From Bacteroidales bacterium (lineage in GTDB: Bacteria > Bacteroidota > Bacteroidia > Bacteroidales > WCHB1-69), in the NCBI GenBank assembly GCA_017961265.1, contig JAGCXN010000021.1, positions 4,793-68,792 of the forward strand: 64,000 bases of DNA, given 5' to 3'. Shown here piece after piece: positions 9,555-64,000 of the stretch. Every line of letters starts with the position of its first letter. The stretch's first letter is position 1. A model generated the notes under the pieces. It was not told where the DNA came from, did no database searches, and was given only the letters and a program-made list of their open reading frames with translations. A program made the position numbers and the translations under genes.

Positions 9555-9570
9555 GGTGGGTTTGTAGAAG

Positions 9571-9654: not shown

Positions 9655-9674
9655 TATAATCGCATCCTCTATAA

Positions 9675-9726
9675 TTTTCAATTTTCAGTTTTCAATTTTC
9701 AGTTTTCAGTTTTCAATTTTCAGTTT
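9675..9726. repeat. heptanucleotide tandem array (TTTTCAR)n, 7 units
   Basis: ttttcaa/ttttcag alternate. The array contains the uvrA stop codon (9706-9708) and its last five codons. Confidence 0.9.
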
Positions 9727-12549: not shown

Positions 12550-12627
12550 AAAAAGACCTCACAAAAAAATCAAGGTGCGAAGTTACGGAATTTTATAGAA
12601 ACAAAAAGCATTCCCTCTGCTTCCTTG

Positions 12628-13329: not shown

Positions 13330-13341
13330 ATTGTTACAAAT

Positions 13342-14529: not shown

Positions 14530-14532
14530 TTT

Positions 14533-28201: not shown

Positions 28202-29746
<1,545 letters not shown>

Positions 29747-36820: not shown

Positions 36821-36848
36821 CTATTCACTATACCCTATACCCTATTCC
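36821..36848. repeat. heptad array CTATTCA CTATACC CTATACC CTATTCC (the complement is related to the GGTRATA family)
   Basis: Four units. The last unit contains the giant gene's stop codon (36842-36844). Confidence 0.7.
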
Positions 36849-42800: not shown

Positions 42801-43738
42801 CAAGTGGATGACCAACTGGAGGTGTCGGAGCCGTTATAGTTGGCAGCCCGCACCCGCCAATAATACATTGAACCATATCGCATATTGTTGATAATGACGC
42901 TTTGGTTGTCGGTCGTGGAAGTGGAGGAAGATGTGTGGTTAATCTGTTGTAAAACGGGTGAATTAAAATGGGGTGTGGTATCTAATTGTAGAAAGTACTG
43001 CGTTACGCCCCGGTAGGGCTTCCAAGTCAAAGTCTGCCGAGTAAAATAGTTGGCAGAGGAACTTGTATCATTGAAAGATACCAACGTGATACTGTCGCTG
43101 GTGGTGAAACTCCTCACCGCCGACCATGCCGAGGTGTCGCTCTCATCCGTATTGGTCGCCCTCATGCGAAGGTAGTAGGTCTTACCGAAATGCAGATTGA
43201 GTGGGTATTTTCCTCCAGAACTATATTCTGTAGTATAGCTTTTTAACAAGGGTGAATTGAACGACATGCTGGTATCACACTGATAGAGGTATTTGGTAGC
43301 ACCCACAATTTCTGTCCATTGGATGCTGGGAGATATGCTATTGGTGAGAATAGTCCCGTCAGCCGGGGCGGTAATGGTGGGCGCATCTGTGGTAGTGAAG
43401 CTCCGCACCGCCGATGCAGCCGATGTGTCGGCATAGTTGGCCGTGATGGCATAAACCCGCCAGTAATAGGTTGTGCCGAATTTCAATCCGTTCACGTTCA
43501 ATCCCGTGTACGAAGACGACATGGTGTAAGAACTGTAAGTAGCAAAAGTGGGGTCCTCCGACCAATGGAACAGATAATAACTTGCTCCTGAAACAGCATT
43601 CAGCTTCAAATTCGGCTTTACCGTGCTGGGATATACATAACCATCGGCAGGTGAGTTCAGCGTCGGTGCTGCAATCTGCGCAAACAAAACATTCATCCCC
43701 GCACACAGCAGGAAAATAAAGAAGGTGAACTTTTTCAT
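36842..43738 (-). CDS. giant (about 2298 aa) T9SS cargo / putative adhesin: signal peptide, 16 FN3-like modules, 10 Cys-pair modules and a T9SS C-terminal sorting domain
   Basis: Signal peptide MKKFTFFIFLLCAGMNVLFAQ. Sixteen repeats end in the motif TYYWRV...DTS.WS..W.FTT. The Cys-pair modules have the form C..Y.W.G.....SG.Y.......GCDS.VTLHLT(I/V). The C-terminus (LSLYPNPTTGMVNVQF...GVYFVRMVNGGKVMAVRKVVKE) is the Por_Secre_tail type. Confidence 0.85.
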   Translation of the reverse strand: MKKFTFFIFLLCAGMNVLFAQIAAPTLNSPADGYVYPSTVKPNLKLNAVSGASYYLFHWSEDPTFATYSSYTMSSSYTGLNVNGLKFGTTYYWRVYAITANYADTSAASAVRSFTTTDAPTITAPADGTILTNSISPSIQWTEIVGATKYLYQCDTSMSFNSPLLKSYTTEYSSGGKYPLNLHFGKTYYLRMRATNTDESDTSAWSAVRSFTTSDSITLVSFNDTSSSANYFTRQTLTWKPYRGVTQYFLQLDTTPHFNSPVLQQINHTSSSTSTTDNQSVIINNMRYGSMYYWRVRAANYNGSDTSSWSSTWQFRTTDFVNNTDNTLNNSDSTRNYYTRQTLYWKNNKGSTKYILQLDTTPHFNSPILREIYTTNAIDNTTNELSTKVYNMLYGTMYYYRVCAINNAPDTSGWSATWQFHTIDTVFSTSNTLNNSDSTKNYYTRQILKWQNNRGSTKYILQLDTTPDFNSSILRQVITTNNIDNETNELSTTVYNLLYGTMYYYRVCAINNAPDTSGWSATWQFHTIDKVFSTSNTIHDTVPTKTYYTRQTLKWQNNRGSTKYILQLDTTPDFNSSVLRQVVISNGIDDETNELSTTVYNLLHGAMYYYRLCAINNAPDTSGWSDTWQFHTRDKVYLYSPADQTTNASPSATLQWKNSSGSSKYILQVDTSSGFNSSSLREIIVTSSITNNDDYKSYALSNLRFGDTYYWRVRSVNEAPDTSGWSDAWSFTVTSGVPTLTSPSDGVVYTACVGPTVNWASITGASHYILAWDTVSTFDSPLYDSFTTTGTSVNIWPIKFATTYYWRVCATNSNDSDTSAWSAAWTFTTSDAPILTSPSDGYVYPNSATPTLKCTAITRVGKYIYQWDTTATFNSPLCASTTKTSNSTSIGPLKLGTTYYWRMRATNYNDDSDTSSWSTVWSFTTGGSIPTLSSPSNGSTAVRLRPTLDWNAVSSCDYYDYECDTTPQFNSPELQSGAIAAGTSEVRLNQLRYGTTYYWRVRIRLNSDTSSWSTVWRFTTAGTIALTSPSNGSTLSRTIKPTLDWDYISDGDYYEYQYDLSPDFDSPALVNGEIAVGTSQIDITEPLRFGETYYWRVREYTAIDTTPWSETWSFNTPGEIALVSPSNGSTLSRTINTTLDWDYISGGLNYQYQYDLSPDFDSPALVNGEIAVGTSQIDITAPLQFGETYYWRVREYTAIDTTPWSETWSFNTPGEIVLVSPANGSTNVGASTTLDWDYIRGGSLYEYQYDTCATFDSPSLATGTIAVGTSQVSVTSLHFGTTYYWRVRETSPVDTTDWSAVWNFTTTNGVPVLTSPSDGYVYTNSVKATVYWNSVTGAGHYIVAWDTVPTFDSPLYETFTATASSIYITELNFGTTYYWKVCSINSNDSDTSSWSTVWRFTTSDAPVLTSPADGTAFSSYSNSRLTVYWNSVTGADHYILEWDTAATFNSPLFATFTASGASVYITEAELQYGTTYYWRVCAINSNAPDTSSWSTVWRFTTPYQLTTGPTLVSPANDSSDIDFQSVLALQWDTLANVNGYRYQVSTSSDFSTLFAQGTTAQTTASIHNLRPATTYYWRVQGYNGVGNSVWSAVWHFSTGGCTPIVTSFTHEICEGELPYHYINGDIDTTFEVGTPQLSTFNFQLLTPLGCDSTVTLHLTVHPAVTSTSSVTVCESELPYHYVDGDIDITFEVGTPNLSIFSFQFSTQYGCDSTVILTVNINQPVENETYMTACDEYEWNGETLTASGDYTATFTAANGCDSVVTLHLTINEPTESDTTATACGSFDWHGYTNLTESGDYTDVLENAEGCDSIVTLHLTINTPTESDTSATVCGSFNWHSYTNLTESGDYTDVLTNAAGCDSTVTLHLTINTPTEGDTTATACGSFNWHGYTNLTESGDYTDVIENAAGCDSTVTLHLTINTPTEGDTTATACGSFDWHGYTNLTESGDYTDVLTNAAGCDSTVTLHLTINQPVVNETHMTACDEYEWNGETLTSSGDYTATFTAANGCDSTVTLHLTIHPAVTELVEVTLCENDLPYHYVNGDIDTTFDVGTPNLSVFNFQFSTQYGCDSVVTLHLTINVADTTEFTETACGSYVWNDEVYEESGDYVQTFANANGCDSVVTLHLTVITINTEVLVTTTEELDAWSLEVMQEGAEYQWIDCETNETIEGEVHQRFNPAISGQYACVITMGECTDTTECIDVTISGIDDYADGILSLYPNPTTGMVNVQFTMNNVQLGAGEIQVLDVYGRVLDAVDISDARSASVQTVQIDLSHYATGVYFVRMVNGGKVMAVRKVVKE
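37548..37577. repeat. in-frame heptad block GTTGAAAATTGAAAATTGAAAACTGAAAGG (encodes [10 protein letters not shown])
   Basis: Read directly. It belongs to the TTTTCAR family in the opposite orientation. Confidence 0.85.
37831..38430. repeat. four tandem 150-bp coding repeats (50-aa Cys-pair modules) inside the giant gene
   Basis: Unit boundaries at 37831, 37981, 38131, 38281 and 38431 each begin with (g/a)ttgatggt(g/c)aggtgca(g/a)cgt. The peptide unit is TPTE(S/G)DT.AT.CGSF(D/N)WH.YTNLTESGDYTDV..NA.GCDS.VTLHLTIN. Confidence 0.9.
38622..38651. repeat. in-frame heptad block GTTGAAAATTGAAAACTGAAAATTGAAAGG (encodes [10 protein letters not shown])
   Basis: Read directly. A third, more diverged block (gttaaaa gttgaaa gttaaaa gttgaga) lies at 38802-38829. 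Confidence 0.85.
41850..42795. repeat. three tandem 315-bp coding repeats (105-aa FN3-like modules) inside the giant gene
   Basis: The string aactgccatgtggccgacc recurs at 42165 and 42480, exactly 315 bp apart. The peptide GWSATWQFHTID...YYYRVCAINNAPDTS repeats. Confidence 0.85.
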
Positions 43739-43746
43739 AGTGAGAC

Positions 43747-43778
43747 CTTTCAATTATCAGTTTTCAATTTTCAGTTTA
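43747..43778. repeat. heptad block CCTTTCAATTATCAGTTTTCAATTTTCAGTTT in the 5' leader of the giant gene
   Basis: It lies between the -7 box (43789-43796) and the ATG (43736-43738). It is an inverted copy of 38622-38651, matching at 27 of 29 positions with a 17-bp perfect core, and of 37548-37577. Confidence 0.85.
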
Positions 43779-43877: not shown

Positions 43878-43965
43878 AAGTCATATCTCAACCTCCGCTT
43901 TTACAAACTTTTCAATCTAAAGTAAAAAAAAGATGTGGTTTTTTACTTTGAAAAGTAAAAAATTG

Positions 43966-43973
43966 TATTTTTG
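43966..43973 (+). promoter_or_regulatory. -7 box TATTTTTG for the AAA ATPase
   Basis: Lies 13 nt upstream of the ATG at 43987. Confidence 0.45.
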
Positions 43974-43986
43974 CAGCACATTAAAA

Positions 43987-45189
43987 ATGATAGATATGGA
44001 CCGATTATTTAAGGCGTATGGCCGTCTGTTGGCGGAAACCGATTTGAAATTCACCCGATATTTATATGATAATATCAACTGGGACAATCGGTTGATTGTG
44101 ATCAAGGGTGCAAAAGGAGTGGGTAAAACGACCTTGATGTTGCAACACATCAAGAAAGATTTTCCCAAAGCGGAAAAGGCTCTGTATGCCTCGCTTGACC
44201 ATTTGTGGTTTGCCACACACTCCATCCTTGATTTGGCAGAATATCATTATACGCATGGGGGAACGCATCTTTTTCTGGATGAGGTACACAAATACAAAGG
44301 ATGGCAACAAGAAATCAAGAATATTTATGATTCCTATCCCCAGCTACATGTTGTTGTAACGGGTTCATCCATGCTAAAAATCGACGAATCGTTATCCGCA
44401 GACCTTTCACGCCGACATCGTCTTTATACGATGGAGGGACTTTCGTTTCGGGAATACCTGAGTCTTGAGCATGTGGTGGAATTGCCGATCTTTTCGTTGG
44501 AGGAAATTCTAAACAACCATTTTGTGATGGCTTCACAAATCACATCAGATGTGAAAGTGCTACACCATTTTGAAAAGTATCTGAAGTCGGGCTACTATCC
44601 GTTTTATCGGGAAGAGGAGGATGGCTTTTTTGACAGGTTGCAACAAGTGATTGAAACTATTATCACCAATGAAATACCATCGGTTAGCAATATTGAATAC
44701 GATTCTGTATATAAAGCCAAGCAATTGCTGGCAGTATTGGCCGAGCAATCACCTTATACACTGAACATTTCATCTTTATGCAACACCTTGCAATCTTCCA
44801 GAAACAATGTGGTGAAACTGCTTGACCTGATGAGCAGGGCGGCCTTGATTCGTCGGCTTTATGCATCGTCGGATGGAATGAATATGTTGACAAAACCTGA
44901 AAAAATCCTCTTTTACAATACCAATCTGATGTTTTGTCTCACTTCGAACGTCGATGCGGGCACTTTGCGTGAAACTTATCTCGCCTCTCAGATTGGCACA
45001 GCGCACAAACTTTCCATGCCGGAAAAGGGAGATATAGTGGCAGATGGGAAGTGGCTTTTTGAAGTAGGAGGGAAAAGCAAGGGTTTTTCGCAGATCAAAA
45101 ATATTGAAGCGAGCTACGTGGTCGCTGATGATATGGAAATCGGTCACGGCAACAAAATTCCACTGTGGCTTTTCGGACTGCTGTATTGA
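43987..45189 (+). CDS. AAA-family ATPase (AAA_14 plus DUF4143-type architecture)
   Basis: Walker A (GAKGVGKTT) and Walker B (LFLDEVH). The C-terminal half is typical of stand-alone Bacteroidales ATP-binding proteins. I prefer the ATG at 43987, with a -7 box at 43966-43973. Confidence 0.65.
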   Translation: MIDMDRLFKAYGRLLAETDLKFTRYLYDNINWDNRLIVIKGAKGVGKTTLMLQHIKKDFPKAEKALYASLDHLWFATHSILDLAEYHYTHGGTHLFLDEVHKYKGWQQEIKNIYDSYPQLHVVVTGSSMLKIDESLSADLSRRHRLYTMEGLSFREYLSLEHVVELPIFSLEEILNNHFVMASQITSDVKVLHHFEKYLKSGYYPFYREEEDGFFDRLQQVIETIITNEIPSVSNIEYDSVYKAKQLLAVLAEQSPYTLNISSLCNTLQSSRNNVVKLLDLMSRAALIRRLYASSDGMNMLTKPEKILFYNTNLMFCLTSNVDAGTLRETYLASQIGTAHKLSMPEKGDIVADGKWLFEVGGKSKGFSQIKNIEASYVVADDMEIGHGNKIPLWLFGLLY

Positions 45190-45851: not shown

Positions 45852-45888
45852 CCTATCACCTTTTACCTGATACCTATTCACCTTTTAC
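45852..45888. repeat. imperfect heptad array CCTATCA CCTTTTA CCTGATA CCTATTCA CCTTTTA
   Basis: Read directly. It lies just upstream of the -7 box of the 45947 gene and is related to the complement of GGTRATA. Confidence 0.6.
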
Positions 45889-45946: not shown

Positions 45947-47284
45947 ATGAGAAACCTTATCGCCCTTTTCGCCACCATTTTCATTTTAATGTCCTATTCG
46001 TTCGCGCAGACGTGCGGCTGCACCGACCCGCTCGCGACCAACTACAACGCCAATGCCACCGTAAACGACGGCAGCTGCGTGTATGCCTCCGCCACCATCA
46101 GCGCGACGGAAATCGGACAACTTGGCGAGACACTGGACGGCAGCTCCACCCTCCTCTTCTGGAACGGCGGCTACTGGACCTACAACGACCACAACGACTG
46201 CTGCCTCTACCGCATCGACAGCACCACCGCAGCCACCATCGAGACCTTGTGCATCAGCGGTATCGGAAACTACGACACGGAGGAGGTGTCGCAGGACAGC
46301 CTCTACCTCTACTTCGGCGATTTCGGCAACAACAGCGGTGTGCGACAGAACCTGCACATCCTGCGCATCAGCAAGGAATCCCTTCTAAACCAGACATTTG
46401 TCGTCGATACAATCTGGTTCTCATACGAAGACCAGACCGACTTCACCTCGCACCCGCAGGCCACCGACTTCGACTGCGAGTCGTTCATCGTCACTGCCGA
46501 CAGCATCTACCTCTTCACCAAGCAGTGGGCTTCGGAACAGACTACCATCTACGGACTGCCGAAAACCCCTGGCACGTACGTCGCCCACCGACTCGAAACG
46601 TACAACGTGGGCGGACTCGTCACTGGCGCCACCTACGTCCCCGAATACCGTCTGGCCGCCCTCTGCGGCTACGACTACAACGGCGGAAGCTACCTCTCCT
46701 CCCTCCATCCGTTCATTCTGTTACTCTATGATTTTCAAGGCGATGACTTCTTCTCTGGAAATAAAAGAAGGCTCGATTTCGGTACATTGGTCAAGGATCA
46801 GGTGGAGGCCGTCGCCACCAGCAACGCCATGGACTTCTACATCACCAACGAGCACTTCACCACCACGCAGCTGGGCATCACCATTGACCGCCCGGCGAAG
46901 CTGCAGCGGCTGGACCTCCGCGACTACCTACTCCCCTACCTCGCCACGTTCGAGACCGAGCCGGAAGACACCGTCCCGACCGACACGGTGCCGACAGACA
47001 CCATCGTCACGCCACCCGACACCACCGGCATCCCGCAGTTCGGTACCGACGGGTTCCGCATCTACCCCAATCCCGCTTCCGACCAGCTGCATATCGACTA
47101 TCCGCAGAATTTCAAGGGGGCAAACTACGAAATAATGAACCTGAGCGGACAAAAAATAGCCAAAGGCATTTTGAAAGATGACACTATTTCATTGAATAAC
47201 AAGAGATTCAATACTGGAAAATACATTTTGGTCATCAGGGGAAAAGAAGGAGTAAAATCGTTCATTTTTATAAAAAAAGAGTAA
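45947..47284 (+). CDS. T9SS C-terminal-sorting-domain protein of unknown function
   Basis: Signal peptide MRNLIALFATIFILMSYSFAQ and a C-terminal FRIYPNPASDQLHIDYP...GKYILVIRGKEGVKSFIFIKKE. A short TVPTD repeat linker precedes the sorting domain. Confidence 0.6.
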   Translation: MRNLIALFATIFILMSYSFAQTCGCTDPLATNYNANATVNDGSCVYASATISATEIGQLGETLDGSSTLLFWNGGYWTYNDHNDCCLYRIDSTTAATIETLCISGIGNYDTEEVSQDSLYLYFGDFGNNSGVRQNLHILRISKESLLNQTFVVDTIWFSYEDQTDFTSHPQATDFDCESFIVTADSIYLFTKQWASEQTTIYGLPKTPGTYVAHRLETYNVGGLVTGATYVPEYRLAALCGYDYNGGSYLSSLHPFILLLYDFQGDDFFSGNKRRLDFGTLVKDQVEAVATSNAMDFYITNEHFTTTQLGITIDRPAKLQRLDLRDYLLPYLATFETEPEDTVPTDTVPTDTIVTPPDTTGIPQFGTDGFRIYPNPASDQLHIDYPQNFKGANYEIMNLSGQKIAKGILKDDTISLNNKRFNTGKYILVIRGKEGVKSFIFIKKE

Positions 47285-49022: not shown

Positions 49023-49232
49023 ATGAAGAAATTTTTTGCAATCATTGCCGTTAGCGCATTCTTGTTCGCCTCCTGCGGTGGCAACAACAACACCGAAGCT
49101 ACTGAAGAAGTAACTGAGCCCGCAACTGAAGAAATCGTTGCTGCTGAAGAAACTACTGAAGAGTGCACCGAAGCTACTGAAGCTGAATGCACCGAAGAGA
49201 ACGCTGAAGTTGCTGAAGTTCCCGCTGAATAA
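49023..49232 (+). CDS. small acidic lipoprotein (69 aa)
   Basis: MKKFFAIIAVSAFLFASC lipobox followed by a Glu/Thr/Ala-rich tail with two Cys residues (TEECTEATEAECTEE). It has its own -7 box (48970-48977) and a strong terminator (49257-49288). Confidence 0.45.
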   Translation: MKKFFAIIAVSAFLFASCGGNNNTEATEEVTEPATEEIVAAEETTEECTEATEAECTEENAEVAEVPAE

Positions 49233-49256
49233 GGAATTTGCACTAACACAGAAAAA

Positions 49257-49288
49257 AAGAGATGAAAGTTCTTTCATCTCTTTTTTTT
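49257..49288 (+). terminator. rho-independent terminator after the small lipoprotein gene
   Basis: AGAGATGAAAG-tt-CTTTCATCTCT followed by T7, with an A7 run upstream. Confidence 0.8.
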
Positions 49289-49323
49289 GTGCCCTACAGT
49301 CCCGTCGGTAACGAAATTATAAG

Positions 49324-49331
49324 TATTTTTG
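49324..49331 (+). promoter_or_regulatory. -7 box TATTTTTG for the SBP gene
   Basis: Lies 18 nt upstream of the ATG at 49350. Confidence 0.5.
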
Positions 49332-51794: not shown

Positions 51795-51819
51795 CGACCT
51801 CATTTTCAACATTCTTTTG

Positions 51820-53529
51820 ATGAAAAAATTTATTTTCTACAACATCTTCTGCGTCGTCGCCGCTATTGGCCTTCACGCTCAAAATGATATCTTTGTTCCC
51901 ACCATTCCCCTTAACAAAAGCGTGGTTTTGGAAGAATATACAGGCGTTGAGTGCATCAACTGTCCCGACGGACACCTTATCGCCAACGAGATAGCTGAAG
52001 CGAATCCCGAACGCACCTTCATCATCAACATCCATGCAGGAAGTTATGCGGCAAACACCTACACTACCGATGAAGGTACCGTTTTACAAACAACTTTCGG
52101 CATAAACGCATACCCCAAAGCGACCATCAACCGACACACTTTCAGCGGTTTCCCGGATAATTTCGCACTCACGCGCGGGTATTGGACTGCAGCTGCCGAC
52201 ACCATTTTCAGCCAGCCTTCTCCCGTAAATATCGCTGCCCGGGGCACGTTGGATTGGACCACCCGCGAACTGAACATCACCGTACAACTCTACTACACCG
52301 CCGACGAAACCGACACCCTAAATCTGCTGAACGTGGCTATCCTGCAAAACAACGTCATCGGGGAACAGGAAGGCTACTATTACAATCCGGCACAGGTCGT
52401 CGGAAGCCAATATAGGCACATGCATATCCTGCGCCACCTGATTACCGGACAATGGGGTGACAGTATCCGCACCACTACGACAGGAAGTTTTGTTGAAAGA
52501 ACCTACAACCTCACTGTTTCCGAAATGCTCGGATCGCCCAACCCCATCTCAGCCAAGTTGGAAGACCTCACCTTCGTCGCCTTCGTCGCCCGCGGGCAAC
52601 AAGAGATTCTCACTGGTTGCGAAGTGGAAATGGAGAATATCAACCTGCCCGAAGTCGGTGCCCGTCTCAAAGAGATTGCTCCCGAACCCGTTCTTGACTG
52701 CTCCGCCCATGCTGCCATCACCGCCATTGTCCGTAACATCGGGAACGAACCGGTTACCGCACTCACATTTGAGTACAGCAATGACGCTGAAACCTATAAC
52801 TACACTTGGAACGGCCAGATTCCCTCACTCGATACAGCCAAAATCCTACTGCCACAATTCGTTACTACCCCCAACACCAATCAGAACGTAACAGCAAAAA
52901 TCACAAATGTAAACGGACAAGAAATGGACGGAGAGGAGTTTAACACCTTTCTGAAGAAAATGGTAGCGGAAGGAACCAGCACGATGACTCTCCGTATCAA
53001 AACCGACGGACATGCGCAAGAACTTTCCTATAAACTATACAATTCTAACAATGAGGTGGTACAACAATCCTCACCCAACCAGTTCACCAATAACACCATT
53101 TGTGAATTTCCTATCCACCTGACCGAGTCGGGATGCTACCGTCTGGAGGTCAGCGATGCGGGCGGCAACGGCATCACCAGCGGCTATGTCCGCCTCTATA
53201 ACAACTCCGACGAAATCATCCTCAACGCCACTGGAAACAGCTTCTCCTCCATACTATACGGTATGATTTCTTTCGAAACTGTGAACATCAGCGACATGAT
53301 TATGGATGAAAACACCTTCATCTTCCCGAACCCCACGACCGATGACATCAACATTAACTCCGAATCAGACATTCAGATGTTTGAAATCTACAATCTCCAA
53401 GGCCAGCGTGTAATTGCTGAGAACGGCAATGTCCGCACCTTCAACGTCAGCGGTCTCACCAAAGGCATGTATCTCCTGAAAGTGACCACCGAAAAGGGTG
53501 TCAGCACTTACAAGATTAGCAAACAATAG
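51820..53529 (+). CDS. Omp28-related thioredoxin-fold surface protein with a T9SS C-terminal sorting domain
   Basis: Signal peptide, then VLEEYTGVECINCPDGH (CxxC). The C-terminus reads FIFPNPTTDDININ...GMYLLKVTTEKGVSTYKISKQ. The ATG at 51820 follows a TTG at 51817. Confidence 0.5.
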   Translation: MKKFIFYNIFCVVAAIGLHAQNDIFVPTIPLNKSVVLEEYTGVECINCPDGHLIANEIAEANPERTFIINIHAGSYAANTYTTDEGTVLQTTFGINAYPKATINRHTFSGFPDNFALTRGYWTAAADTIFSQPSPVNIAARGTLDWTTRELNITVQLYYTADETDTLNLLNVAILQNNVIGEQEGYYYNPAQVVGSQYRHMHILRHLITGQWGDSIRTTTTGSFVERTYNLTVSEMLGSPNPISAKLEDLTFVAFVARGQQEILTGCEVEMENINLPEVGARLKEIAPEPVLDCSAHAAITAIVRNIGNEPVTALTFEYSNDAETYNYTWNGQIPSLDTAKILLPQFVTTPNTNQNVTAKITNVNGQEMDGEEFNTFLKKMVAEGTSTMTLRIKTDGHAQELSYKLYNSNNEVVQQSSPNQFTNNTICEFPIHLTESGCYRLEVSDAGGNGITSGYVRLYNNSDEIILNATGNSFSSILYGMISFETVNISDMIMDENTFIFPNPTTDDININSESDIQMFEIYNLQGQRVIAENGNVRTFNVSGLTKGMYLLKVTTEKGVSTYKISKQ

Positions 53530-53543
53530 AATTGGAATACCTG

Positions 53544-55331
53544 TTAATCCAGCTTGAGGACTGCAAGGAACGCTGACTGCGGCACCTGCACCGTACCAAT
53601 CTGGCGCATCCGCTTCTTACCCTCCTTCTGTTTTTCCAAAAGCTTGCGTTTACGGGTGATATCGCCGCCGTAGCACTTGGCGGTCACGTCCTTTCGGACG
53701 GCCTTGATGGTCTCACGGGCGATGATTTTCGTGCCGATGGCTGCCTGCACAGCGATGTCGAACTGCTGCCGCGGGATCAGCTCCTTCAGCTTTTCACAAA
53801 TCTTCCGTCCGAAGGGATAGGCATTGTCGAAATGGGTCAGGGATGACAACGCATCGACTGAGTCACCGTTCAACAGAATGTCCAGTTTCACCAACTGTGC
53901 CGGCTTGTAACTGGAAATATGATAGTCGAAGGAGGCATAACCTTTGGATATGCTCTTCAGCTTGTCGTAAAAGTCGAACACGATCTCACCCAACGGCAAA
54001 TCAAAAGTGAGTTCCACACGGTTGGAAGCAATATAGACCTGATTCAGCAGCGTACCGCGCTTGTCCAGACACAGCTTGATAATCGGTCCGATATAGTCGG
54101 CCTTGCTGATAATCTGCGCCCGGATGTACGGCTCCTCAATATGGTCAATCATCGTGGGAGACGGCATTCCCGACGGGTTATGCACCTCCATCAATTCACC
54201 TTTGGTGGTATAGAGGTTGTACGACACGTTCGGCACCGTGGCGATCACGTCCATATTGAATTCACGGTCAAGACGTTCCTGCACGATTTCCATGTGCAGA
54301 AGTCCAAGGAAGCCGCAACGGAAGCCAAAGCCCAAAGCCGCCGAAGACTCCGGCACAAAAGTAAGGGAGGCATCATTAAGTTGCAACTTTTCAAGGGAGG
54401 CACGAAGTTCCTCGTATTGGTCTGCTTCAGTGGGATAGACACCGGCAAACAGCATTGGCTTCACCTCCTGAAAACCCGCAACCGCCTCGGAACAAGGACG
54501 TTCCACGTGCGTGACCGTATCTCCCACACGCACCTCCTTTGAGGTCTTGATGCCGGAAATGATGTAGCCAACATCCCCCGCTTTCATTACTTGCCGCGGC
54601 TCCTGATGCATCCGGAGCACCCCGATCTCATCGGCATTGTACTCTTTGCCAGTAGCCATAAACTTCACAAAATCATTGGTTTTCAATGTTCCATTGAAGA
54701 TACGGAAATAAGAGATGATCCCACGGTATGAATTGAAGACGGAGTCAAAAATCAAAGCTTGGAGCGGTGCATCGGGGTCACCTTTCGGAGCCGGAATACG
54801 CTCAATGATGGCAGCAAGAAGCTCCTCCACACCCAAGCCGGTCTTTCCGCTGGCTTCAATAATCTCGCTCTCGTCACAACCGAGCAAATCCACAATTTGG
54901 TCTTTTACCTCCGCCGGCATAGCGGCAGGCATATCCATTTTGTTCAGCACGGGAATGATTTCCAGATTATTGTCTATGGCCAGATAGAGGTTGGATATCG
55001 TCTGTGCCTGAACGCCTTGTGTGGCATCTACAAGAAGGAGCGCACCTTCACAAGCGGTGATGGAACGCGACACCTCGTAAGAGAAGTCCACATGGCCGGG
55101 AGTGTCAATCAGGTTAAGGACATAATCTTCCCCCTTGTACTTATAATTCATCTGGATGGCGTGGCTCTTGATCGTGATGCCGCGCTCACGTTCGAGTGCC
55201 ATATCGTCCAGCACCTGATCTTGGAATTCACGCTCGTCAACTGTGCCGGTAAACTGAAGCATACGGTCAGCTAACGTACTCTTACCGTGGTCAATATGGG
55301 CAATAATGCAGAAATTTCGGATATGTTTCAT
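53544..55331 (-). CDS. lepA: translation elongation factor 4
   Basis: [21 protein letters not shown]1 motif, DTPGHVDF and the LepA C-terminal domain. Confidence 0.95.
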
Positions 55332-55338
55332 TTGGCGG

Positions 55339-55346
55339 CAAAATTA
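55339..55346 (-). promoter_or_regulatory. -7 box (TAATTTTG) abutting the lepA start
   Basis: Only 7 nt separate the box from the ATG at 55331, which implies a leaderless or near-leaderless mRNA if the box is functional. Confidence 0.35.
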
Positions 55347-55359
55347 CGGAAATTTTCGC

Positions 55360-55391
55360 AAAAAAAGAGGGGATTTCTCATCGAAATCCCC
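55360..55391 (-). terminator. rho-independent terminator after gldN
   Basis: GGGGATTTC-tcatc-GAAATCCCC. On the transcribed minus strand the hairpin is followed by a T run (A7 on the plus strand). Confidence 0.7.
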
Positions 55392-55421
55392 CCTGTTGTT
55401 ATGAAAAAAATTGGTTTCGGA

Positions 55422-56360
55422 TTAGAATTCCCAGAGGTCGTGTTCGAACTTCCGGATTTTTTCAGTGATACGATCAGACTCCAAACGCTGGTCACGCGCA
55501 TTGGTGATGTACTGCTGGATTTCACGATCGTTATAGACATTCTGTTCCTGATAGATGTAGCTGGAAAATTCGCGTTTCCAAGTCATCAGGTCATCCAGAG
55601 AGATACGCTGGGCGTTGTTCTTCTGGTTATAAACCTCCTGCTGGGCAAGGTATGGACGAAGTTCGTCGTACATGATGTAGCCAACACGTTTTTTCGACTT
55701 GATGGCACCGACGCTCTCTTCCTCTTCCTGACCGGGCTGAGGTTCACCGCTATTGGTTTCCTTTTCGTATTCAATCATCGGCTCGATTTCAAGGATGCGC
55801 ACCTCAAGGAGGGAACGTTTCTTGTCAAAGAACCAGATTTCTTTCACACGATAAAGGAGCACCTGACGGGCAGTGAATTCCTCTTCGTACTCAATTTCAC
55901 CGATTACCTCGAAAGTTTCGGGGTCAATCTGTTCAGTCCGTTTCAATTCAACCAAGCTGGCCTTGACATCTTCACGGCTCATCGGCATAGTGCAGAACTC
56001 ATCCGAATAGATGGGAAGCACACCTTCCGTATGTTCCGGATTTTTGACATCCAGTGCATCGAAAATCACTTGGGCCATACAACGCCACGTTCCGCGCACA
56101 TCCTGCGGAAAATAGAGTGGATGGTTCATTTTTTCACGAAGGTCGATGGTTCTCCAGATGGTGTGATAGTACATCACATCGGCGTTCCGCTGATAAACAT
56201 ACGGAACAGGGTCGGAGAATTCGCCCACTTCGGTCTGCTCCCACGCGAATTCGAGGGGCTTGCGAACCGGCTGGTTCATCGTGCTACCTGTCGTGTCTTC
56301 CTGGGCAAAGGCCAGAAAGCCGAGACAGAAAGCAAAAACGGACAAAACAATTTTTTTCAT
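55422..56360 (-). CDS. gldN: T9SS/gliding ring protein GldN (PorN)
   Basis: Signal peptide and the YYHTIWRTIDLREKMNHPLYFP motif. It is the last gene of the gldKLMN block. Confidence 0.85.
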   Translation of the reverse strand: MKKIVLSVFAFCLGFLAFAQEDTTGSTMNQPVRKPLEFAWEQTEVGEFSDPVPYVYQRNADVMYYHTIWRTIDLREKMNHPLYFPQDVRGTWRCMAQVIFDALDVKNPEHTEGVLPIYSDEFCTMPMSREDVKASLVELKRTEQIDPETFEVIGEIEYEEEFTARQVLLYRVKEIWFFDKKRSLLEVRILEIEPMIEYEKETNSGEPQPGQEEEESVGAIKSKKRVGYIMYDELRPYLAQQEVYNQKNNAQRISLDDLMTWKREFSSYIYQEQNVYNDREIQQYITNARDQRLESDRITEKIRKFEHDLWEF

Positions 56361-56378
56361 AACAATAAAGTTTTCAAA

Positions 56379-58058
56379 TTATTTGATACGGATGGTGATA
56401 TCACGCAACGTACGCTGGCCGGCGATGGAGGTGGCTTTGATGTCGGAGAACACCAGCACCGTTCCTGCACTTGCACTATTGATAGCTGCAGTCACGCTGC
56501 CGTCGAACTGACCGCCGGAGCAAGCCTTCGGAGCACCTTCGATACCTTTAGAGATAACGGTCAAACGGTAGGAGTTGATGGTCCATTTGAGGTCATAAGC
56601 AAAGTCATCACCCATACGTGCGGAAATGAACGGGTTGGCAAGAAGCTCGCTCTTGCTACGCTTGCCGCCCCAGATGTTGGCACCAAGGTAGGAAGTAGGA
56701 TCCGGAACCTTCTTGACACGGAATTCAGCGGAACCCATTGCCTTGGAGGAATTACCGTCGCGGGCGGTGACCGTGGCAGTCACTTTCTTACCGATAAGGC
56801 TAGCCGGAACAGTGACATCGTAGTGACCGTCACCCGTAGCTTTCATCGTGCATCCGGGGAAGTTGACGGAAAGTCTCTTTACATCAACAGAGCCACCGAT
56901 AGAGACAGGATTCGGAATACCTGCATAGAGCACGTTCATCTTATCGGCAGCAACAGTAGCTGACGGAGCAATGACGCTATAGGTATCTTTGAAACCATAG
57001 TATTTGTAACCATCGGGAGATTTCACCTTGATCAAACCAGCGAATTTGTGGTCGCCAACGCCGCCGGCAGGAATCTGCAGTTTGGCAATACCGCCAGCAC
57101 CAACAAGGTGTTCAGCAGAACCAAGCTGATCTTCCGTGAGGGTATCTGCACCAATCTTATAGTAAACTTCCAGATCGGCGGAGGAGTTGAAAGCGGCGAC
57201 GATAATGTCGGATTCATAGCTGGAACCGGAGAACACAATCTGTGACTTCGGAATGGCACGACCAGTAACAGCATCGAATTTGAAGTCGTTAGCATCAATA
57301 CCTTTGGTCAATTCATCCAGAACGAGAGTTTCAGCATTACGCACTTCACCGATCACTTTACTGAGAAGGATGACGGTACCGGCGCAGATCAAGTGATTGA
57401 AGTTGTGCATTTCCCAACTTTCAGTACCCTTGTCACCATTTCCTCTGACGTACTCCTTATCCACCTCAAGTCCGAGGTTATCCATAACGAATTTCTTGCG
57501 CTCTTTCTCCATATTGGAGGAATCAGGAAGGAGAGCCAGAATGGCAGACTTGTACTCATTGATTTTTGCACGCATAACGGAGGCACGACAATTGGGATTA
57601 TTTTCACTGATGTCGTTTCCGTTCTCATCTTGTCTCAAATAGAACCAGGTCGGTTTGTCGAAGTTGTCCTTACCGTCGATTTTTGCGACAGGAATACGGC
57701 CATTGTTAGCGGGATCATTCAGCTGTTCCATGGCCTTCTTTTCGCCATCCACATACTTGATAAGTTCGAGACGGGAATCCTCAATATATTTGACCATATC
57801 ATCGGTCAACTGGCGGAGTTGCGTTGCTTTCTCATTGGCGGTCTTAGCTTTTGCCGTGGTATCTTTCGCCAATGCTGCATATTTGAAGTCAATACCTTCT
57901 TTCACGCTGACGTTGGACTGTGCCAAGGTGTCGTCAACAACATTGAAGGCTTCCAAAATATCTTTGGACACATTCAGTGCCAACATAGCGGTCAGCACCA
58001 AATACATCATACCAATCATTTGTTGCCGGGGGGTTTCCGGACAGTTTTTTGCACCCAT
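56379..58058 (-). CDS. gldM: T9SS/gliding motor-associated protein GldM (PorM)
   Basis: N-terminal TM motif PRQQMIGMMYLVLTAMLALNVSKDILEAF. 559 aa. Confidence 0.9.
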   Translation of the reverse strand: MGAKNCPETPRQQMIGMMYLVLTAMLALNVSKDILEAFNVVDDTLAQSNVSVKEGIDFKYAALAKDTTAKAKTANEKATQLRQLTDDMVKYIEDSRLELIKYVDGEKKAMEQLNDPANNGRIPVAKIDGKDNFDKPTWFYLRQDENGNDISENNPNCRASVMRAKINEYKSAILALLPDSSNMEKERKKFVMDNLGLEVDKEYVRGNGDKGTESWEMHNFNHLICAGTVILLSKVIGEVRNAETLVLDELTKGIDANDFKFDAVTGRAIPKSQIVFSGSSYESDIIVAAFNSSADLEVYYKIGADTLTEDQLGSAEHLVGAGGIAKLQIPAGGVGDHKFAGLIKVKSPDGYKYYGFKDTYSVIAPSATVAADKMNVLYAGIPNPVSIGGSVDVKRLSVNFPGCTMKATGDGHYDVTVPASLIGKKVTATVTARDGNSSKAMGSAEFRVKKVPDPTSYLGANIWGGKRSKSELLANPFISARMGDDFAYDLKWTINSYRLTVISKGIEGAPKACSGGQFDGSVTAAINSASAGTVLVFSDIKATSIAGQRTLRDITIRIK

Positions 58059-58097
58059 AGTTAGTTATTTAAAGATTTAATGGTTAAGCGATAAGAA

Positions 58098-59003
58098 TTA
58101 TTTGTTGATGTTCATAGCGGCCAGCATATTGCCGTAAACGCTGCTCAACATAGCGACATTCTTGGTCAACTTATCGATTTCTTCTTTATATTTCTTGGTA
58201 TTCTCAAGCGTGGAGCTGAGGTTGTTAGCATAGGTGGTGATATTGGCCTCAACGAGCTTGTAGTTCTCCAACATGTCCTTAGAGTTCTTCATCTGCAACT
58301 CATACATGGAGTTGATGGAAGCGAGGTTCTGATTGAGTTTCTTGAGTTGTTCATTGTAAGCACCCGTATCACCCTGCATGGATTTGCTGGTATTTTCATA
58401 GATGCTGGTCAAGTTGGCGACGGCGGTGGCGGCCTTCTGGACATTGGTTAAGTATTGGCCGGAGATGTTGGAATCCTTCTCCAAAGAAGAGGCAGTTTTA
58501 TCATACTGCAAAGAGAGATTACGGACTGACTCGGCGGCCTTGGTCAGATTGCCAACATAATTATCGGTAACGGTAGCGGCATCAGAAACGCCAGAGAGCT
58601 TCTTGGCGTTCTCACTGAGGTTGCGCATACCTGTGGCGAGACTTTCAATCAGTTCGGGGCCAATCTTGGCTTGTTCTAACATATTATCAAGTTGCTGTGT
58701 AACAGTGCCTTCTGGGAGTTTTTTCTTATCTTTCTTGCTGGTTGGGGTTTCCGGCATATCGTCACCGGCAGCCAATTCGGGATAAACAAGAGCCCAGTTA
58801 TACTCCACATGGAGGGGTTCAAAAGCGGACATGAAGAAAATGATGGCTTCGGTGCCCATACCTAACAAAAGCATGACACCAGCACCCGGATAGTGCATAA
58901 TTTTGAACAAAGCGCCGAGAATAACGACGGATGCACCCCATCCGTACAATTTGGCCATAAAATTCTTATAGCCCTTGCTTCTTACTAATTTGTCTAAACC
59001 CAT
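58098..59003 (-). CDS. gldL: T9SS/gliding motor protein GldL (PorL)
   Basis: Two N-terminal TM helices (YGWGASVVILGALFKIMHYPGA..., GTEAIIFFMSAFEP) followed by a coiled-coil tail. Confidence 0.9.
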   Translation of the reverse strand: MGLDKLVRSKGYKNFMAKLYGWGASVVILGALFKIMHYPGAGVMLLLGMGTEAIIFFMSAFEPLHVEYNWALVYPELAAGDDMPETPTSKKDKKKLPEGTVTQQLDNMLEQAKIGPELIESLATGMRNLSENAKKLSGVSDAATVTDNYVGNLTKAAESVRNLSLQYDKTASSLEKDSNISGQYLTNVQKAATAVANLTSIYENTSKSMQGDTGAYNEQLKKLNQNLASINSMYELQMKNSKDMLENYKLVEANITTYANNLSSTLENTKKYKEEIDKLTKNVAMLSSVYGNMLAAMNINK

Positions 59004-59060
59004 AGTAATAAAATTTAAATTGGTTAATGATTTTGGTTATTTAATAAATTGATTTTCTGA

Positions 59061-60491
59061 TTAATAAACGTGTGAAGCGGAAGAGACATTATCACCACGC
59101 TGACGGCCCATATAGCTCTGGACGCAACGGAAACCCACATAGGAAGTACAGCTGTCCTGATACTCGAAAGTCTTGGCAAAAACGGTAGTATAGTAACTCA
59201 CGTCTTTCCACGAACCGCCACGGATCACCTTGCGCTTTTTCTCGACAGAGTCGGTCTTCTTTGCATAATAGGTATATTGCGGGTTAAGGTCATGAGTGAA
59301 ATTGGTAGCAGATTTATCAAAAGCATCCTCGCACCATTCAGCCACGTTGCCGCTCATATCGAACAAACCGAAATCGTTCGGGTGGTAGTGGGCCACAATA
59401 CCCGGGTAGATGTTACCATCAGCGATATAGTTACCGCGCTGGGGTTTGAAGTTGCTAAGGTAGCAGCCATTACGGTTCTGGGTGTAAGGACCGCCCCACG
59501 GATAGGTCTGCATGTCGAAATCACCACGTGCCGCCCATTCCCATTCAGCCTCATTGGGAAGACGGAATTCTTGTTCACGGGCATAATCATGGGCGGAAAG
59601 CCAGCAGTTACGGAGATGGGTTCTCCAGTAGCAGAATGCCTTGGCCTGACGCCATGAAATACCGACAACCGGATAGTGATCAAACTGCGGATGGTAGAAA
59701 TAATTCAAAGTCATCGGTTCATTATAAGAGTAAGTGAAGTCGTGCACCCAGCACAAAGTGTCGGGATAGATATTGACAACTTCATTGCGCATGAAACGTT
59801 CGCGGTTCTTGTTAAAGCTGCTCGGACGGCTGGCGAAAAGTCCGCCGTAATCATTGCCTTCCTTGTCCATTTCCTTATAAGAAGCACCATATTTCTCATG
59901 ATCTTCCGGATCCACGTAGTTGCGGTAGTCGCACCACCAGTACTCATAGTTCAGCATACTGACATTAAGCATGACTGGAGTGTAGTGGTAAAAACGTGAA
60001 TTAGCCACAAGGAAAAGCGGGCTAAGGGCGGCGCGGACCTCCTCATTGTCGGAATTCCAGTCGATATCCTCTTTCCAATTAATCATGCGGGGTTCCACAA
60101 GTTCACCCTCGTTCTCACCAGATTTATACTTCACATAGTGGCCACCATGCTTTTCAGCATCTTCGATTTCGGCATTGCCCAAAAGGACGTGTGCAATAGA
60201 GTCACGCACCCAATAAACAAACTGGCGGTACTCATTGTTCGTAATCTCTGTCTCGTCCATATAGAAAGCGGAGATGGAGACATTCCTTGACTGGTGTGTG
60301 AAGGCGAAAGGTACGTCCTCGTCACCGGCGCCCATCAGATAGTGACCTGCGGGCACATAGACCATACCATACGGCATAAGATCCAGGTAGTCAGGGCGAT
60401 CCTTCACGCCGACCAATTGTCCGTCACCATCATTCTTACATCCCATAAAAAGGATGGAGACTACTGCGAGGAATAATGCTGCTTTTTTCAT
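59061..60491 (-). CDS. gldK: T9SS/gliding lipoprotein GldK (PorK), SUMF1/FGE fold
   Basis: Lipobox (LFMGC), FGE-sulfatase-like motifs (NVAEWC, RGGSWKD). 476 aa. Confidence 0.9.
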   Translation of the reverse strand: MKKAALFLAVVSILFMGCKNDGDGQLVGVKDRPDYLDLMPYGMVYVPAGHYLMGAGDEDVPFAFTHQSRNVSISAFYMDETEITNNEYRQFVYWVRDSIAHVLLGNAEIEDAEKHGGHYVKYKSGENEGELVEPRMINWKEDIDWNSDNEEVRAALSPLFLVANSRFYHYTPVMLNVSMLNYEYWWCDYRNYVDPEDHEKYGASYKEMDKEGNDYGGLFASRPSSFNKNRERFMRNEVVNIYPDTLCWVHDFTYSYNEPMTLNYFYHPQFDHYPVVGISWRQAKAFCYWRTHLRNCWLSAHDYAREQEFRLPNEAEWEWAARGDFDMQTYPWGGPYTQNRNGCYLSNFKPQRGNYIADGNIYPGIVAHYHPNDFGLFDMSGNVAEWCEDAFDKSATNFTHDLNPQYTYYAKKTDSVEKKRKVIRGGSWKDVSYYTTVFAKTFEYQDSCTSYVGFRCVQSYMGRQRGDNVSSASHVY

Positions 60492-60541
60492 ATTCTTTGA
60501 CTTTGAATGTATTCTTAACGTAAACTGCTGTATATTATTGT

Positions 60542-61570
60542 TTAATACTGGTTTTTATAAATAGAACGTGTTGAGCCATAACCTGAGAAGACCTCCTCTT
60601 TGTATATGTCGAAACAGTAGCGGAGCATAATTTCGATGTCACCATAGCTTCGGTCTGTTTTGAAGCCCAACTTACTGGTTGTGAAGCTATAACCAAGGCC
60701 CATTTCCAATCCTTTCAGATAATTATTGGAAGAATTGAAGAACGGGCGGGCGCCGAAAAGAACAGATACAGCATCCTGAATACGGTAGGAAGCTCCGAAC
60801 CAAAGAATGCCATTATAGCGGGCAAGGAGCATCAGGTCGAACTGTGCTGCGGAAAAGTCTGTCTTGATAAGGGCCTGCGGGAGGATTTCCCAACTGGGAT
60901 CCCAAGGAAGAACCCAAGTATAACCACCGTGAATATACAAGTTGCGAGCCATTTTAAGGGTCTGCTTATCCCCGGAAAGGCGAATCTTCTCGGCTATCTG
61001 TGTAACACCGATACCTGCATTCCAGCGGTCAGCTTTATAGAAAAGTCCAAAATTGAAATCAAGGTCAAGCCATGACTCGCCACTGGCAGCCATGTTGTTA
61101 ATCAACTCGTCACCCTCCTGGGTCGGACTGAAGTGTGAAGGGTCAAGTTTCTGGCTGAGCAACTGGGCCTGCAGACCAATACCGAGACTTCCTGTCGGGA
61201 TACGCAACTTGAACGAGTAGCCGAGCTTCACCCCCACATTGTTGAAATAGCCAATCTTATCCTTAATCACAGACACACCCAAGCTACCATGCAACTTGCG
61301 GAGATAGGACTCCATGCTGAAGTAAATCTGCTGGGGAGAGGTATTATATTTCTTCTGATTACCATTCGCATCCACAATATAATCATTCCAACCGGTATAT
61401 TGCTGTCGGAAAATGCCCGTGAAACAGAGAGTATTGCTTTGTTCACCGATGGCGCCCGCATTATAATAAGGAGTGGCCCACTGAAAAAGTGTGAACTGCG
61501 CATCCTGCTGTGCAAAGACACCCGCCGTAAAAACGAACAAAACAACCGATAAGATGTAGCTTTTTCTCAT
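60542..61570 (-). CDS. porP: T9SS membrane protein PorP/SprF
   Basis: Signal peptide, then QQDAQFTLFQWATPYYNAGAIG, the PorP/SprF N-terminal signature. The protein has beta-barrel character. Confidence 0.85.
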   Translation of the reverse strand: MRKSYILSVVLFVFTAGVFAQQDAQFTLFQWATPYYNAGAIGEQSNTLCFTGIFRQQYTGWNDYIVDANGNQKKYNTSPQQIYFSMESYLRKLHGSLGVSVIKDKIGYFNNVGVKLGYSFKLRIPTGSLGIGLQAQLLSQKLDPSHFSPTQEGDELINNMAASGESWLDLDFNFGLFYKADRWNAGIGVTQIAEKIRLSGDKQTLKMARNLYIHGGYTWVLPWDPSWEILPQALIKTDFSAAQFDLMLLARYNGILWFGASYRIQDAVSVLFGARPFFNSSNNYLKGLEMGLGYSFTTSKLGFKTDRSYGDIEIMLRYCFDIYKEEVFSGYGSTRSIYKNQY

Positions 61571-61731
61571 GTTCTGATTATTCCTATTTCTTATTCATAA
61601 TAAAATAAAAACTTAGTAATCAGTATTTTGCAATCCAACACTTCTACTTTTTCCAACCTACTGAATCCCTTTTACGACCCACCTTAGAAAATGTTACAAT
61701 ACACGATACTTTATACCAAAATTTCGAGCGC

Positions 61732-61739
61732 CAAAAGTA
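61732..61739 (-). promoter_or_regulatory. -7 box (TACTTTTG) for the porP-gldKLMN operon
   Basis: Lies about 160 nt upstream of the porP ATG at 61570, within a 250-bp AT-rich spacer. Confidence 0.4.
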
Positions 61740-61824
61740 CAAAAAAAAAATTTTGGATTCACACCCTTTCTCCTTTTTTTATAAAAAAAATGGAAACAGC
61801 AAAAACGAGCCAAACAGAGTATTC

Positions 61825-64000
61825 CTAAAAGAAAGCTTTCAACTGCAAGAAACCCGTATGAATCAGCTTGCGCTCATTTGTTACCCGTCCCTCATATTGC
61901 AGATTAAGCTGTAAATACTCAAATAGTTTCGTCTGATAGGTCAAGTTCCAAAGGAGGTTGTGACCTGACGACAGTCCGTCCAGCATTTCATAGGCGACAC
62001 TGCTGTCGGTCCCCCCCTTATACAATATATTAATATATTGCACCCGCAGGTCAACCGTACCCAATTGTTTCATCCTATAGGTGGCCTCGAGTTCAGCCTT
62101 GTAACGGTTGGCCGTTTCACCATAATCCAGATTTCTCTTATAGCCCGCCTCACCCGTCACTGAAAGACTCAGGTTAAAGTCGAAATTCAGGGTGACCGAC
62201 TGTTCCAACTGATGGGAGAGAATCTGGTAGTCGCGGCCGGCAAATCCTTCCACCTGACTTTGCTTGACTGAATTCCTATACATCGCTTTCAGTATCAATA
62301 TTTTGGCAAGTTCTGAACGGGCTGTCAGCTCATGATGCTTCAAATTCATGCTTTCAAATCCATAGTAAAGCAGATTCTTCGACTGGTTGACCATCGCCAC
62401 GTAATTCAATGAGAAGTAAGAATTTGGGAGCGAAAATCCGAAATTGTTTTTGAAATTGAAACTGCGGTTCACCAACACCGAATCGGCGATACCAAACCCG
62501 TAAGGGTTCAAAATACGGAAATCCTTGCCCATCGTGCATTTCTGGCTTGTCCGCAGCATCGCGACATCGCTGAACATGGACAACGCTTTCAGAAATCCCT
62601 TCTTGTTTCGCCAGACGTTGGCGGGGCGCAACTGCAAGGTCTGGGTCGTACCGCAGTTGTAAGTGTTTATGTACTCATTTGTGGAGAGCCACACCTTCAC
62701 ATAGTCCGCTTCATTCTGGAAGACAGCCAGTTCAAACTCGTCCAGCTCTTCAATGCCGTTGCCGTTGTAGTCGTTCCAGACGTAACTCCCCTGTCCTGCC
62801 GCCACCTTCAGGAAGGTGTATTCGCGCTTCTGTTCCAAGCCGCTACCGGCTTCATAGTAGAGGCCGAGCGCCACCGCCCCTTTCCAGAAACTGCCGGCAT
62901 AATCGACATTGGCGACGAAGTTGTGCTCGGAGACAAAGTTGCGGAGTGTGTCACGGACACGGTCGTTCCGGTAGGTCACCGTCCCTTTCAGACGGTTGTG
63001 CCGCCACTTCGTAACCTCGAACGCCACCTGCGCCTCGTTGGATAACGAACGTACCGACAATACATTATTATATACGTCGTCATCGACACGGTTCTTGAAC
63101 TGGAAGAGGTAGTTGTAGCCCGTCACAGAATCGCTGTTGGCGAGATAGACCGCCGCCTCATTGAAAGCATAGCTGTTAAGCCTGAGCGAGTCGGTAGCGG
63201 TACTGCGGAAAGCGTTTTATTCCAGGTACTTCTTCAAACCAATCTTGATTTTGGAGAAGGACTTGGAAAAATCATTAACGGTTTTCACAAACTGGCTTTT
63301 CTGAATCTGCTGGTTCGAAGCGAGATACGAAGATATCGAACTCCATTGCCAACTATTGAACGTGTGGCGGGAATTGAGTTCGTGCCGGAACGCCGACAGG
63401 TCGCCGAAACGGGCGAGCCAGTTGAACGAGTAGTACGTACTTCCCTTCAGCGGATGTTCAAAGCCTGTGACAATTCCCGCCAGCTGCTCCGAAGCCGTGG
63501 AGGTGTAGTCGCTCTCCAGATTGTACTCACGGTAGTACTCCACGGGACGGAAGCTTTTCAGCGGCGTATAGTTCTTGTGCACAAATTCATAGTCAATGCC
63601 CGCACGGTAGCGCCAGAGCGTGTCGCGCACCCGCTGCCCCAGCTTCGTACGGTATTCCAGCTTCAGTTTGTAGGCGATACCGGCATTATCCTTGTCACCG
63701 CTTTTGGAAAAGAGGTTGTTGTCGGCGTATGAGAAAGCCAACTCCGTCATCGCCGTCAGCTTGTCGGAAAACGCGTAGGTAGCATGAAGCGCCATCAGTT
63801 CGTTCATCTTCGGCGTATTCAACTGAACTACAGGCTCATAATCACCTTGCGGGATTCCATTCACAGGTGCAACCCACTGATAGACTTTCCCGTTGGCGAC
63901 ACTCTGCAACAGAATGTAATTACCCTTGTTGGCTCCCACATAGCTGAACGGCACCCGGTAAACATTGTGACGGTCTGTTCCCGCATAGACATAAATTGGG
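61825..64000 (-). pseudogene. large outer-membrane beta-barrel-like protein gene interrupted by one in-frame TAA (63217-63219); the 5' end lies beyond the right edge
   Basis: ORFs 63217..63954 and 61825..63126 share one frame, since 63954 and 63126 are both multiples of 3. The 30 codons between them are all sense codons. The frame stays open to position 63999. The C-terminus (GFLQLKAFF) has the terminal aromatic residue typical of outer-membrane barrels. Confidence 0.6.

Follow-up and report, generated by a model that had tools for sequence, protein, structure and literature searches.

The window, by which we mean the whole 64,000-nt stretch of DNA analysed here, closes with a large minus-strand gene whose reading frame is interrupted once. 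Read from 63999, the frame contains no stop before the TAA at 63219-63217; past it lie 30 sense codons (NAFRSTATDSLRLNSYAFNEAAVYLANSDS) and then a GTG at 63126-63124, from which 433 codons remain open up to the TAG at 61827-61825, giving a product that ends in ...LQLKAFF. The remaining two minus-strand frames are stop-rich and closed. The original prediction had described two ORFs in one frame, split by a TAA plus 30 sense codons, with the upstream piece open to the window edge, and translation confirmed these coordinates, the intervening peptide and the open edge, the first stop in frame from 63999 being the TAA at 63219-63217. It had also described the downstream piece as beginning at a GTG and having no ATG; the GTG is indeed the first possible start after the stop, but internal ATG codons are present in this piece. 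The features of the split gene and of the genes downstream are as follows, with porP and gldKLMN identified from their ORFs and from the Pfam matches of identical or near-identical sibling products.

63220..63999, minus strand: N-terminal fragment of the barrel gene, in-window part, 260 codons, equal to codons 425-684 of the 1148-codon intact allele
63229..63231, minus strand: codon 681, AAG (Lys), which is GAG (Glu) in six near-identical contigs
63217..63219, minus strand: premature stop TAA at codon 685, which is TAC (Tyr) in the near-identical contigs L001-L006 and Tyr in 87 of 120 homologues
63127..63216, minus strand: 30 sense codons from the stop to the first possible restart, identical to the intact allele, ordinary coding sequence
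61825..63126, minus strand: C-terminal fragment, 433 codons from the GTG to the natural TAG stop at 61827-61825, sequence as in the intact allele
61571..61824, minus strand: AT-rich spacer of 254 nt before porP, from reading of the sequence
60542-61570, minus strand: porP (PF11751)
59061-60491, minus strand: gldK (FGE-sulfatase)
58098-59003, minus strand: gldL
56379-58058, minus strand: gldM
55422-56360, minus strand: gldN

The N-terminal fragment is deposited in NCBI as a separate 684-aa CDS, J6Y35_03270 (MBP5400632.1), and the C-terminal fragment as J6Y35_03265 (MBP5400631.1). The latter has an aromatic end and a weak match to the porin model BBP2_2, and nothing more. Cluster look-up showed that both fragments are on record from a single contig, an NCBI metagenome-assembled genome (MAG) sequence of 80,682 bp.

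Homologues were searched with the concatenated 724-residue in-window translation, carrying an X at the stop position. This query recovered 874 homologues. Of the best 120, three (P0023, P0040 and P0075) are contig-end fragments and were set aside from the length range; each of the remaining 117 is one protein of 1119-1179 aa that covers the whole query (100%) and aligns colinearly over the stop. Identity is 94% to P0001, at 100% coverage, and ranges from 39% to 90% for the rest of these full-length proteins. In a MAFFT alignment of these 120 sequences, the stop column holds Tyr in 87, and the 16 closest homologues all read LEYN at the site, in the context ...LEYN(A/V)FR.... The codon-681 position is occupied by Glu in the 14 closest homologues, and the 30 codons that separate the stop from the GTG correspond to conserved coding sequence. 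Since single proteins align colinearly over the stop at up to 94% identity, the same-frame ORFs are not chance neighbours. The annotation of two hypothetical proteins of 684 and 433 aa favors two genuine adjacent genes that share a frame by chance; however, every orthologue is one protein across the junction, the 30 intervening codons are conserved coding sequence, and the intact allele differs by just two bases, so that the likelihood of two genes is practically nil. A comparison with orthologues for a sense codon at the stop site had been proposed at the outset, with two separate genes in the orthologues named as the outcome that would overturn the prediction; the opposite was found, the orthologues being single genes with Tyr at the site.

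In the 80 species-representative genomes with a family member that were compared, the Y685 site is never a stop; 79 of them have an uninterrupted barrel gene, and L020 alone has an internal stop at any position. The window gene departs from the single uninterrupted ORF of the family through the TAA at codon 685. An exact search with a 54-mer across the stop, its third codon base set to N, gave no match in the species-representative genomes, among which the source MAG is not included. Collectively, these comparisons show the two ORFs to be one gene for a predicted outer-membrane beta-barrel protein of ~1148 aa, cut by a single base change that is private to this sequence.

Full-length colinear homology places the gene in an unnamed Bacteroidota family of outer-membrane beta-barrel proteins of ~1150 aa (the P0001 cluster). 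The profile search of the concatenated protein that had been suggested for naming the family was carried out, and neither Pfam nor NCBIfam recognised one: scans of this protein and of full-length homologues returned sub-threshold noise alone (BBP2_2 and phage tail models), P0001 had no Pfam family at E <= 0.01, and a profile search against PDB sequences matched no chain. For P0001, AlphaFold2 was run on an alignment of 80 sequences; the model (mean pLDDT 80.7) has a helix and a small region at its N-terminus, followed by ~40 long beta-strands that span residues 130 to 1152. The last residue of the family consensus is F, invariant at F1153, and together with the window product's ...KAFF terminus this agrees with the earlier remark that the final F is typical of an outer-membrane protein. 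Tyr685 of the window gene corresponds to Tyr690 of P0001 and lies inside a predicted strand (680-695). The family is represented by at least 587 matched loci in species-representative genomes, and its carriers include Bacteroidales, Flavobacteriales (Crocinitomicaceae, Vicingaceae and Fluviicola), Marinilabiliales and others.

The recency of the stop was assessed using the window's exact PorP protein as a handle, which retrieved nine contigs from other assemblies. Six of the nine (L001-L006) cover the stop site and all read TAC; over 4.3-11.5 kb they are otherwise 100% identical to the window, barring position 63231 and changes private to the individual contigs. For L003-L006, comparison over 4.3-8.5 kb leaves exactly two sites of difference from the window, namely 63217, where C>A on the gene strand (G>T on the plus strand) converts TAC to TAA (Y685*), and 63231, 14 nt upstream of the stop, where G>A converts GAG to AAG (E681K) at the conserved Glu. 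Two private window differences in 11,459 nt would fall 14 nt apart by chance with a probability of ~0.0024, and this spacing points to one local event behind both changes. The 684-aa product, including 424 off-window residues (P0123), equals the intact allele except for E681K, and the remaining 1146 codons of the gene equal the intact allele with no secondary decay; from the off-window and in-window comparisons together, the whole gene is the intact allele plus two base changes. The stop is accordingly derived, replacing a conserved sense codon in an orthologous gene that is otherwise intact, and, as the sampled contigs and genomes show, is private to one MAG and common to no relative.

Could the split nevertheless be functional, with readthrough or recoding of the TAA yielding the full barrel, or a restart at GTG 63126 yielding two cooperating products? 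In its favor are the preserved frame and the GTG 30 codons past the stop, and nothing else, and the frame is kept simply because the lesion is a single substitution. The stop occurs in 0/120 aligned homologues, 0/80 species representatives and 0/6 near-identical contigs. TAA ends 22 of the 33 window genes (long ORFs) and is therefore not reassigned, while Gln-ttg is the only tRNA in the window, with no suppressor tRNA found in its 64 kb. The stop also interrupts a predicted strand (680-695) of a continuous barrel. The N-terminal piece would have no C-terminal beta-signal and would be short of ~20 predicted strands, whereas the C-terminal piece would be without a signal peptide. Readthrough is rejected on three counts, namely that no orthologue has the stop, that most window genes end in TAA and that no suppressor tRNA is encoded in the window, and reinitiation because the resulting pieces could presumably not work; the commonness of TAA as a window terminator and the position of the stop inside a predicted strand also speak against the two-gene reading. 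Such a split is highly improbable, and it is hardly credible that anything in it is functional. Of the four explanations initially offered, a recent nonsense mutation and a sequencing or assembly error survive, whereas reinitiation and readthrough fall with an unconserved stop and TAA as the main terminator. What is left is an assembly error or a null mutation of very recent date, and no designed feature.

Downstream of the gene, the T9SS core genes at 55422..61570 are intact and have no private differences from L003-L006. In the spacer, TACTTTTG at 61739-61732 fits TAnnTTTG, the consensus of the Bacteroidetes -7 motif. Judging from this candidate, porP-gldKLMN may have its own promoter, in which case the polar effect of the upstream stop would be limited. 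A sigma-70 and terminator scan of the spacer gave no match of note, the sigma-70 model being uninformative for a Bacteroidetes genome. The gene order barrel gene-porP-gldK-L-M-N is kept at protein identities of 94%, 57% and 40%, with different genes further upstream. Of the 80 species representatives, 17 have this order; the majority are labelled as Bacteroidales MAGs, and several derive from ruminant gut samples. In most of the remaining representatives, no porP was found within the available flank (<=3 kb downstream); these include members of Flavobacteriales, Crocinitomicaceae and Vicingaceae at 31-37% identity. Judged by synteny, the porP-gldKLMN adjacency is restricted to one Bacteroidales clade. 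The AlphaFold barrel and the synteny agree with the original prediction that a large outer-membrane-protein gene lies directly upstream of porP-gldKLMN; given that position, the status of the gene may bear on secretion biology, as had been suggested at the outset.

Further genes of the window are related to the same secretion system. The minus-strand ORF at 36842-43753 encodes 2303 aa with repeated Pur_ac_phosph_N/fn3/Ig-like domains and a C-terminal Por_Secre_tail, and is a very large T9SS cargo protein gene, 12 kb from the T9SS core operon. On the plus strand, the sibling-contig product of 51817-53529 carries Omp28 and Por_Secre_tail (569 aa) and that of 45947-47284 carries Por_Secre_tail alone (445 aa); both are additional T9SS cargo genes on the flank of the operon. 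Look-up of a 418-aa ORF at 43933-45189 returned no record. In the spacer between the ORF ending at 45189 and the ORF starting at 45947, a 22-bp stretch (45856-45877) is present in the window and absent from the otherwise near-identical 81-kb contig L105. In the sister lineage, L104/L106 carry at 11462-14542 a 1026-aa MmeI-type restriction-modification gene between aminotransferase and SBP_bac_5 genes, which is absent from the window (equivalent position ~49100-49330) and from L103.

Other disrupted alleles were observed in sibling and related assemblies. L001/L002 (equivalent to window 63599-63540) contain E578* (GAG>TAG) among four or five C>A/G>T changes, accompanied by P570T and S573I in both and by G558V in L002 only. 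L098/L099 contain E364* with R370G in the barrel gene, L100 contains a barrel-gene frameshift near residue 743, and the species representative L020 contains Tyr>TAG near residue 617. In L007, gldK (equivalent to window 60228-60207) contains seven substitutions in 22 nt, including Y88* (TAC>TAG), and the far end of this contig switches to a divergent strain; the L007 assembly appears to be chimeric or error-bearing within a core T9SS gene. The samples for E578*, E364* and gldK Y88* are SAMN15830195, SAMN15830190 and SAMN15830150, respectively.

For variant classes, ~60 kb of the window was compared with near-identical contigs, and the mutational spectrum was drawn from private or single-sample variants of the siblings and the window (window 14461-35375 and 52542-64000 against L001-L013). 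Private non-synonymous and nonsense variants are transversions in 18 of 21 cases, 11 of these being G:C>T:A, whereas synonymous polymorphisms are transitions in 16 of 22 (Fisher p = 1.7e-4 for transition versus transversion between the classes; p = 0.003 for G:C>T:A versus the rest). The stop-creating change is itself G:C>T:A and falls in the private non-synonymous class. Synonymous variants often occur in tracts of three or four, and two such tracts are private to the window, each with four synonymous substitutions in 34-67 nt, at 28864-28930 (ATP synthase beta) and 33279-33312 (a GCV_T gene); they resemble short segments brought in from a related strain by recombination. The synonymous class has the look expected of genuine polymorphism and recombination under purifying selection, while the spectrum of the private non-synonymous class suggests artefact-like variants in these metagenome assemblies. 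Another window-private pair lies 4 nt apart at 9586 and 9590 in the spacer 9444-9706, where the window reads G and C and L109/L110 read T and A.

Two templated or targeted origins were considered and dropped. For a quasi-palindrome or local gene conversion, no mutant k-mer of >=8 nt had a nearby template, the exceptions being trivial 8-mers and one self-palindrome in L001/L002. For a diversity-generating retroelement, the changed bases are G or C, not A-directed, and no reverse transcriptase was seen among the called genes of the sibling contigs.

We consider it probable, at roughly 0.55, that the TAC>TAA change is an error or a minority-read path in the consensus of a short-read MAG. An uncorrected local error or minority-read path would have been carried into the consensus, with the neighbouring E681K produced by the same event as the TAA; the change would have arisen in sequencing or assembly instead of in the cell and would serve no function. 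The clustering of the two changes and the excess of transversions, especially G:C>T:A, among private non-synonymous changes lean towards error, which is further supported by the clustered changes with stops in sibling assemblies (E578*, E364* and gldK Y88*), by the lack of decay elsewhere in the gene and by the occurrence of the allele on one contig. The labels of the sibling assemblies (XIEF21-1_SAMN1583...) suggest the NovaSeq/MEGAHIT ruminant gut study of Xie et al., which used NovaSeq 150-bp reads, PCR-free libraries and MEGAHIT single-sample and co-assemblies (PMC8199421). We infer a tie between that ruminant study and the window's MAG as well. In two-colour chemistry, spurious green signal would yield both C>A and G>T. 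Several observations run counter to an error: outside this site the consensus of the window looks good, eight of its ~14 private differences being synonymous transitions in the two tracts; the 80.7-kb contig implies reasonable depth; MEGAHIT normally requires k-mers to be seen at least twice, so that singletons are filtered; the companion G>A is a transition, outside the transversion class; and the E578* cluster is present in two assemblies (L001 and L002), implying read support for that lesion.

A genuine and very recent nonsense mutation in a strain or subpopulation, giving a null barrel allele and a pseudogene at its very beginning, is quite possible, if short of probable. On this account TAC>TAA and E681K may represent one multi-nucleotide event, and the loss could be tolerated or even favored, large surface barrels being common phage or host targets. 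The derived stop at a conserved Tyr has accumulated no further lesions, the consensus is otherwise clean with mostly synonymous private differences, and independent disrupted alleles exist in closely related contigs (E578*, E364*, the frameshift near 743 and the Tyr>TAG of L020), although some broken alleles were found by seeking truncated proteins, which biases their count upwards. The G:C>T:A change also fits the in vivo signature of oxidative damage, and the family, whose linkage to the T9SS core is not universal, may be dispensable. However, the allele is on one contig only, and one change suffices for loss, yet the stops here and in the siblings come with nearby non-synonymous changes. 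The private spectrum is transversion-rich and unselected, unlike the transition-rich synonymous polymorphisms in the same data, and gldK, a core T9SS gene, is struck by the same kind of lesion. A broader scenario, in which the null alleles (Y685*, E578*, E364* and the frameshift at ~743) are real and barrel loss has been selected recurrently in near-clonal populations, is improbable; if true, recurrent loss might be an escape from a phage or host factor that uses the barrel as a receptor.

Under the favored reading of a consensus error, as under a recent mutation, J6Y35_03270 and J6Y35_03265 are to be read as one disrupted gene, not as two genes or a case of recoding. The finding is of little importance in itself, and the downstream T9SS core genes are intact. 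The recurrence of private, clustered, transversion-rich, stop-creating changes in sibling assemblies calls for caution over nonsense codons seen in a single MAG. The most useful by-product is an unnamed, widespread giant-barrel family with a clade-specific linkage to the T9SS core operon, which can be tested experimentally. No relevant literature was found on a protein encoded upstream of porP.

Comparison with known systems bears on both the protein and the lesion. Foldseek searches of the PDB with the P0001 model ranked SprA first (E = 4e-11), followed by LptD, SusC-type transporters, TbpA and SlpA, with TM-scores of 0.12-0.25 across the matches. The SprA/Sov translocon of the T9SS (PDB 6H3I and 8GL8) is likewise a very large single-chain Bacteroidota outer-membrane beta-barrel, and the barrel gene described here is linked to the core genes of the system that SprA serves as translocon. 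However, the TM-score to SprA is 0.21-0.25, SprA has ~2400 aa whereas the barrel protein has 1148-1153 aa, half the size, and SprA_N (PF14349), a domain of SprA, has no match in the barrel protein. The idea of a "mini-SprA" that replaces the translocon was dropped, given that a canonical SprA of 2420 aa and a T9SS plug protein are both encoded elsewhere in the sister lineage (L103/L104). LptD, the SusC/TonB-dependent transporters and TbpA have the general large-barrel fold in common with the model (E = 1e-8 to 1e-6) and, like the window barrel, end in an aromatic C-terminal residue, but TM-scores to them are 0.12-0.17 and sequence identity 6-10%, and the barrel protein, unlike this class, has no plug or TonB-box domain and no Pfam match. 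From the predicted fold, the protein is read as a very large outer-membrane barrel and not as a member of the SprA, LptD, SusC, TbpA or SlpA families.

The lesion itself belongs to an already-known class: this is an ordinary disrupted gene in a MAG, in which a single nonsense substitution or consensus error fragments a CDS. As in the fragmented CDSs and unitary pseudogenes of draft genomes and MAGs, one derived stop takes the place of a conserved sense codon, the reading frame is kept, the orthologues are intact, and the pieces are annotated as two hypothetical proteins. Unusual for that class are the second substitution 14 nt away and the similar clustered lesions in sibling assemblies.
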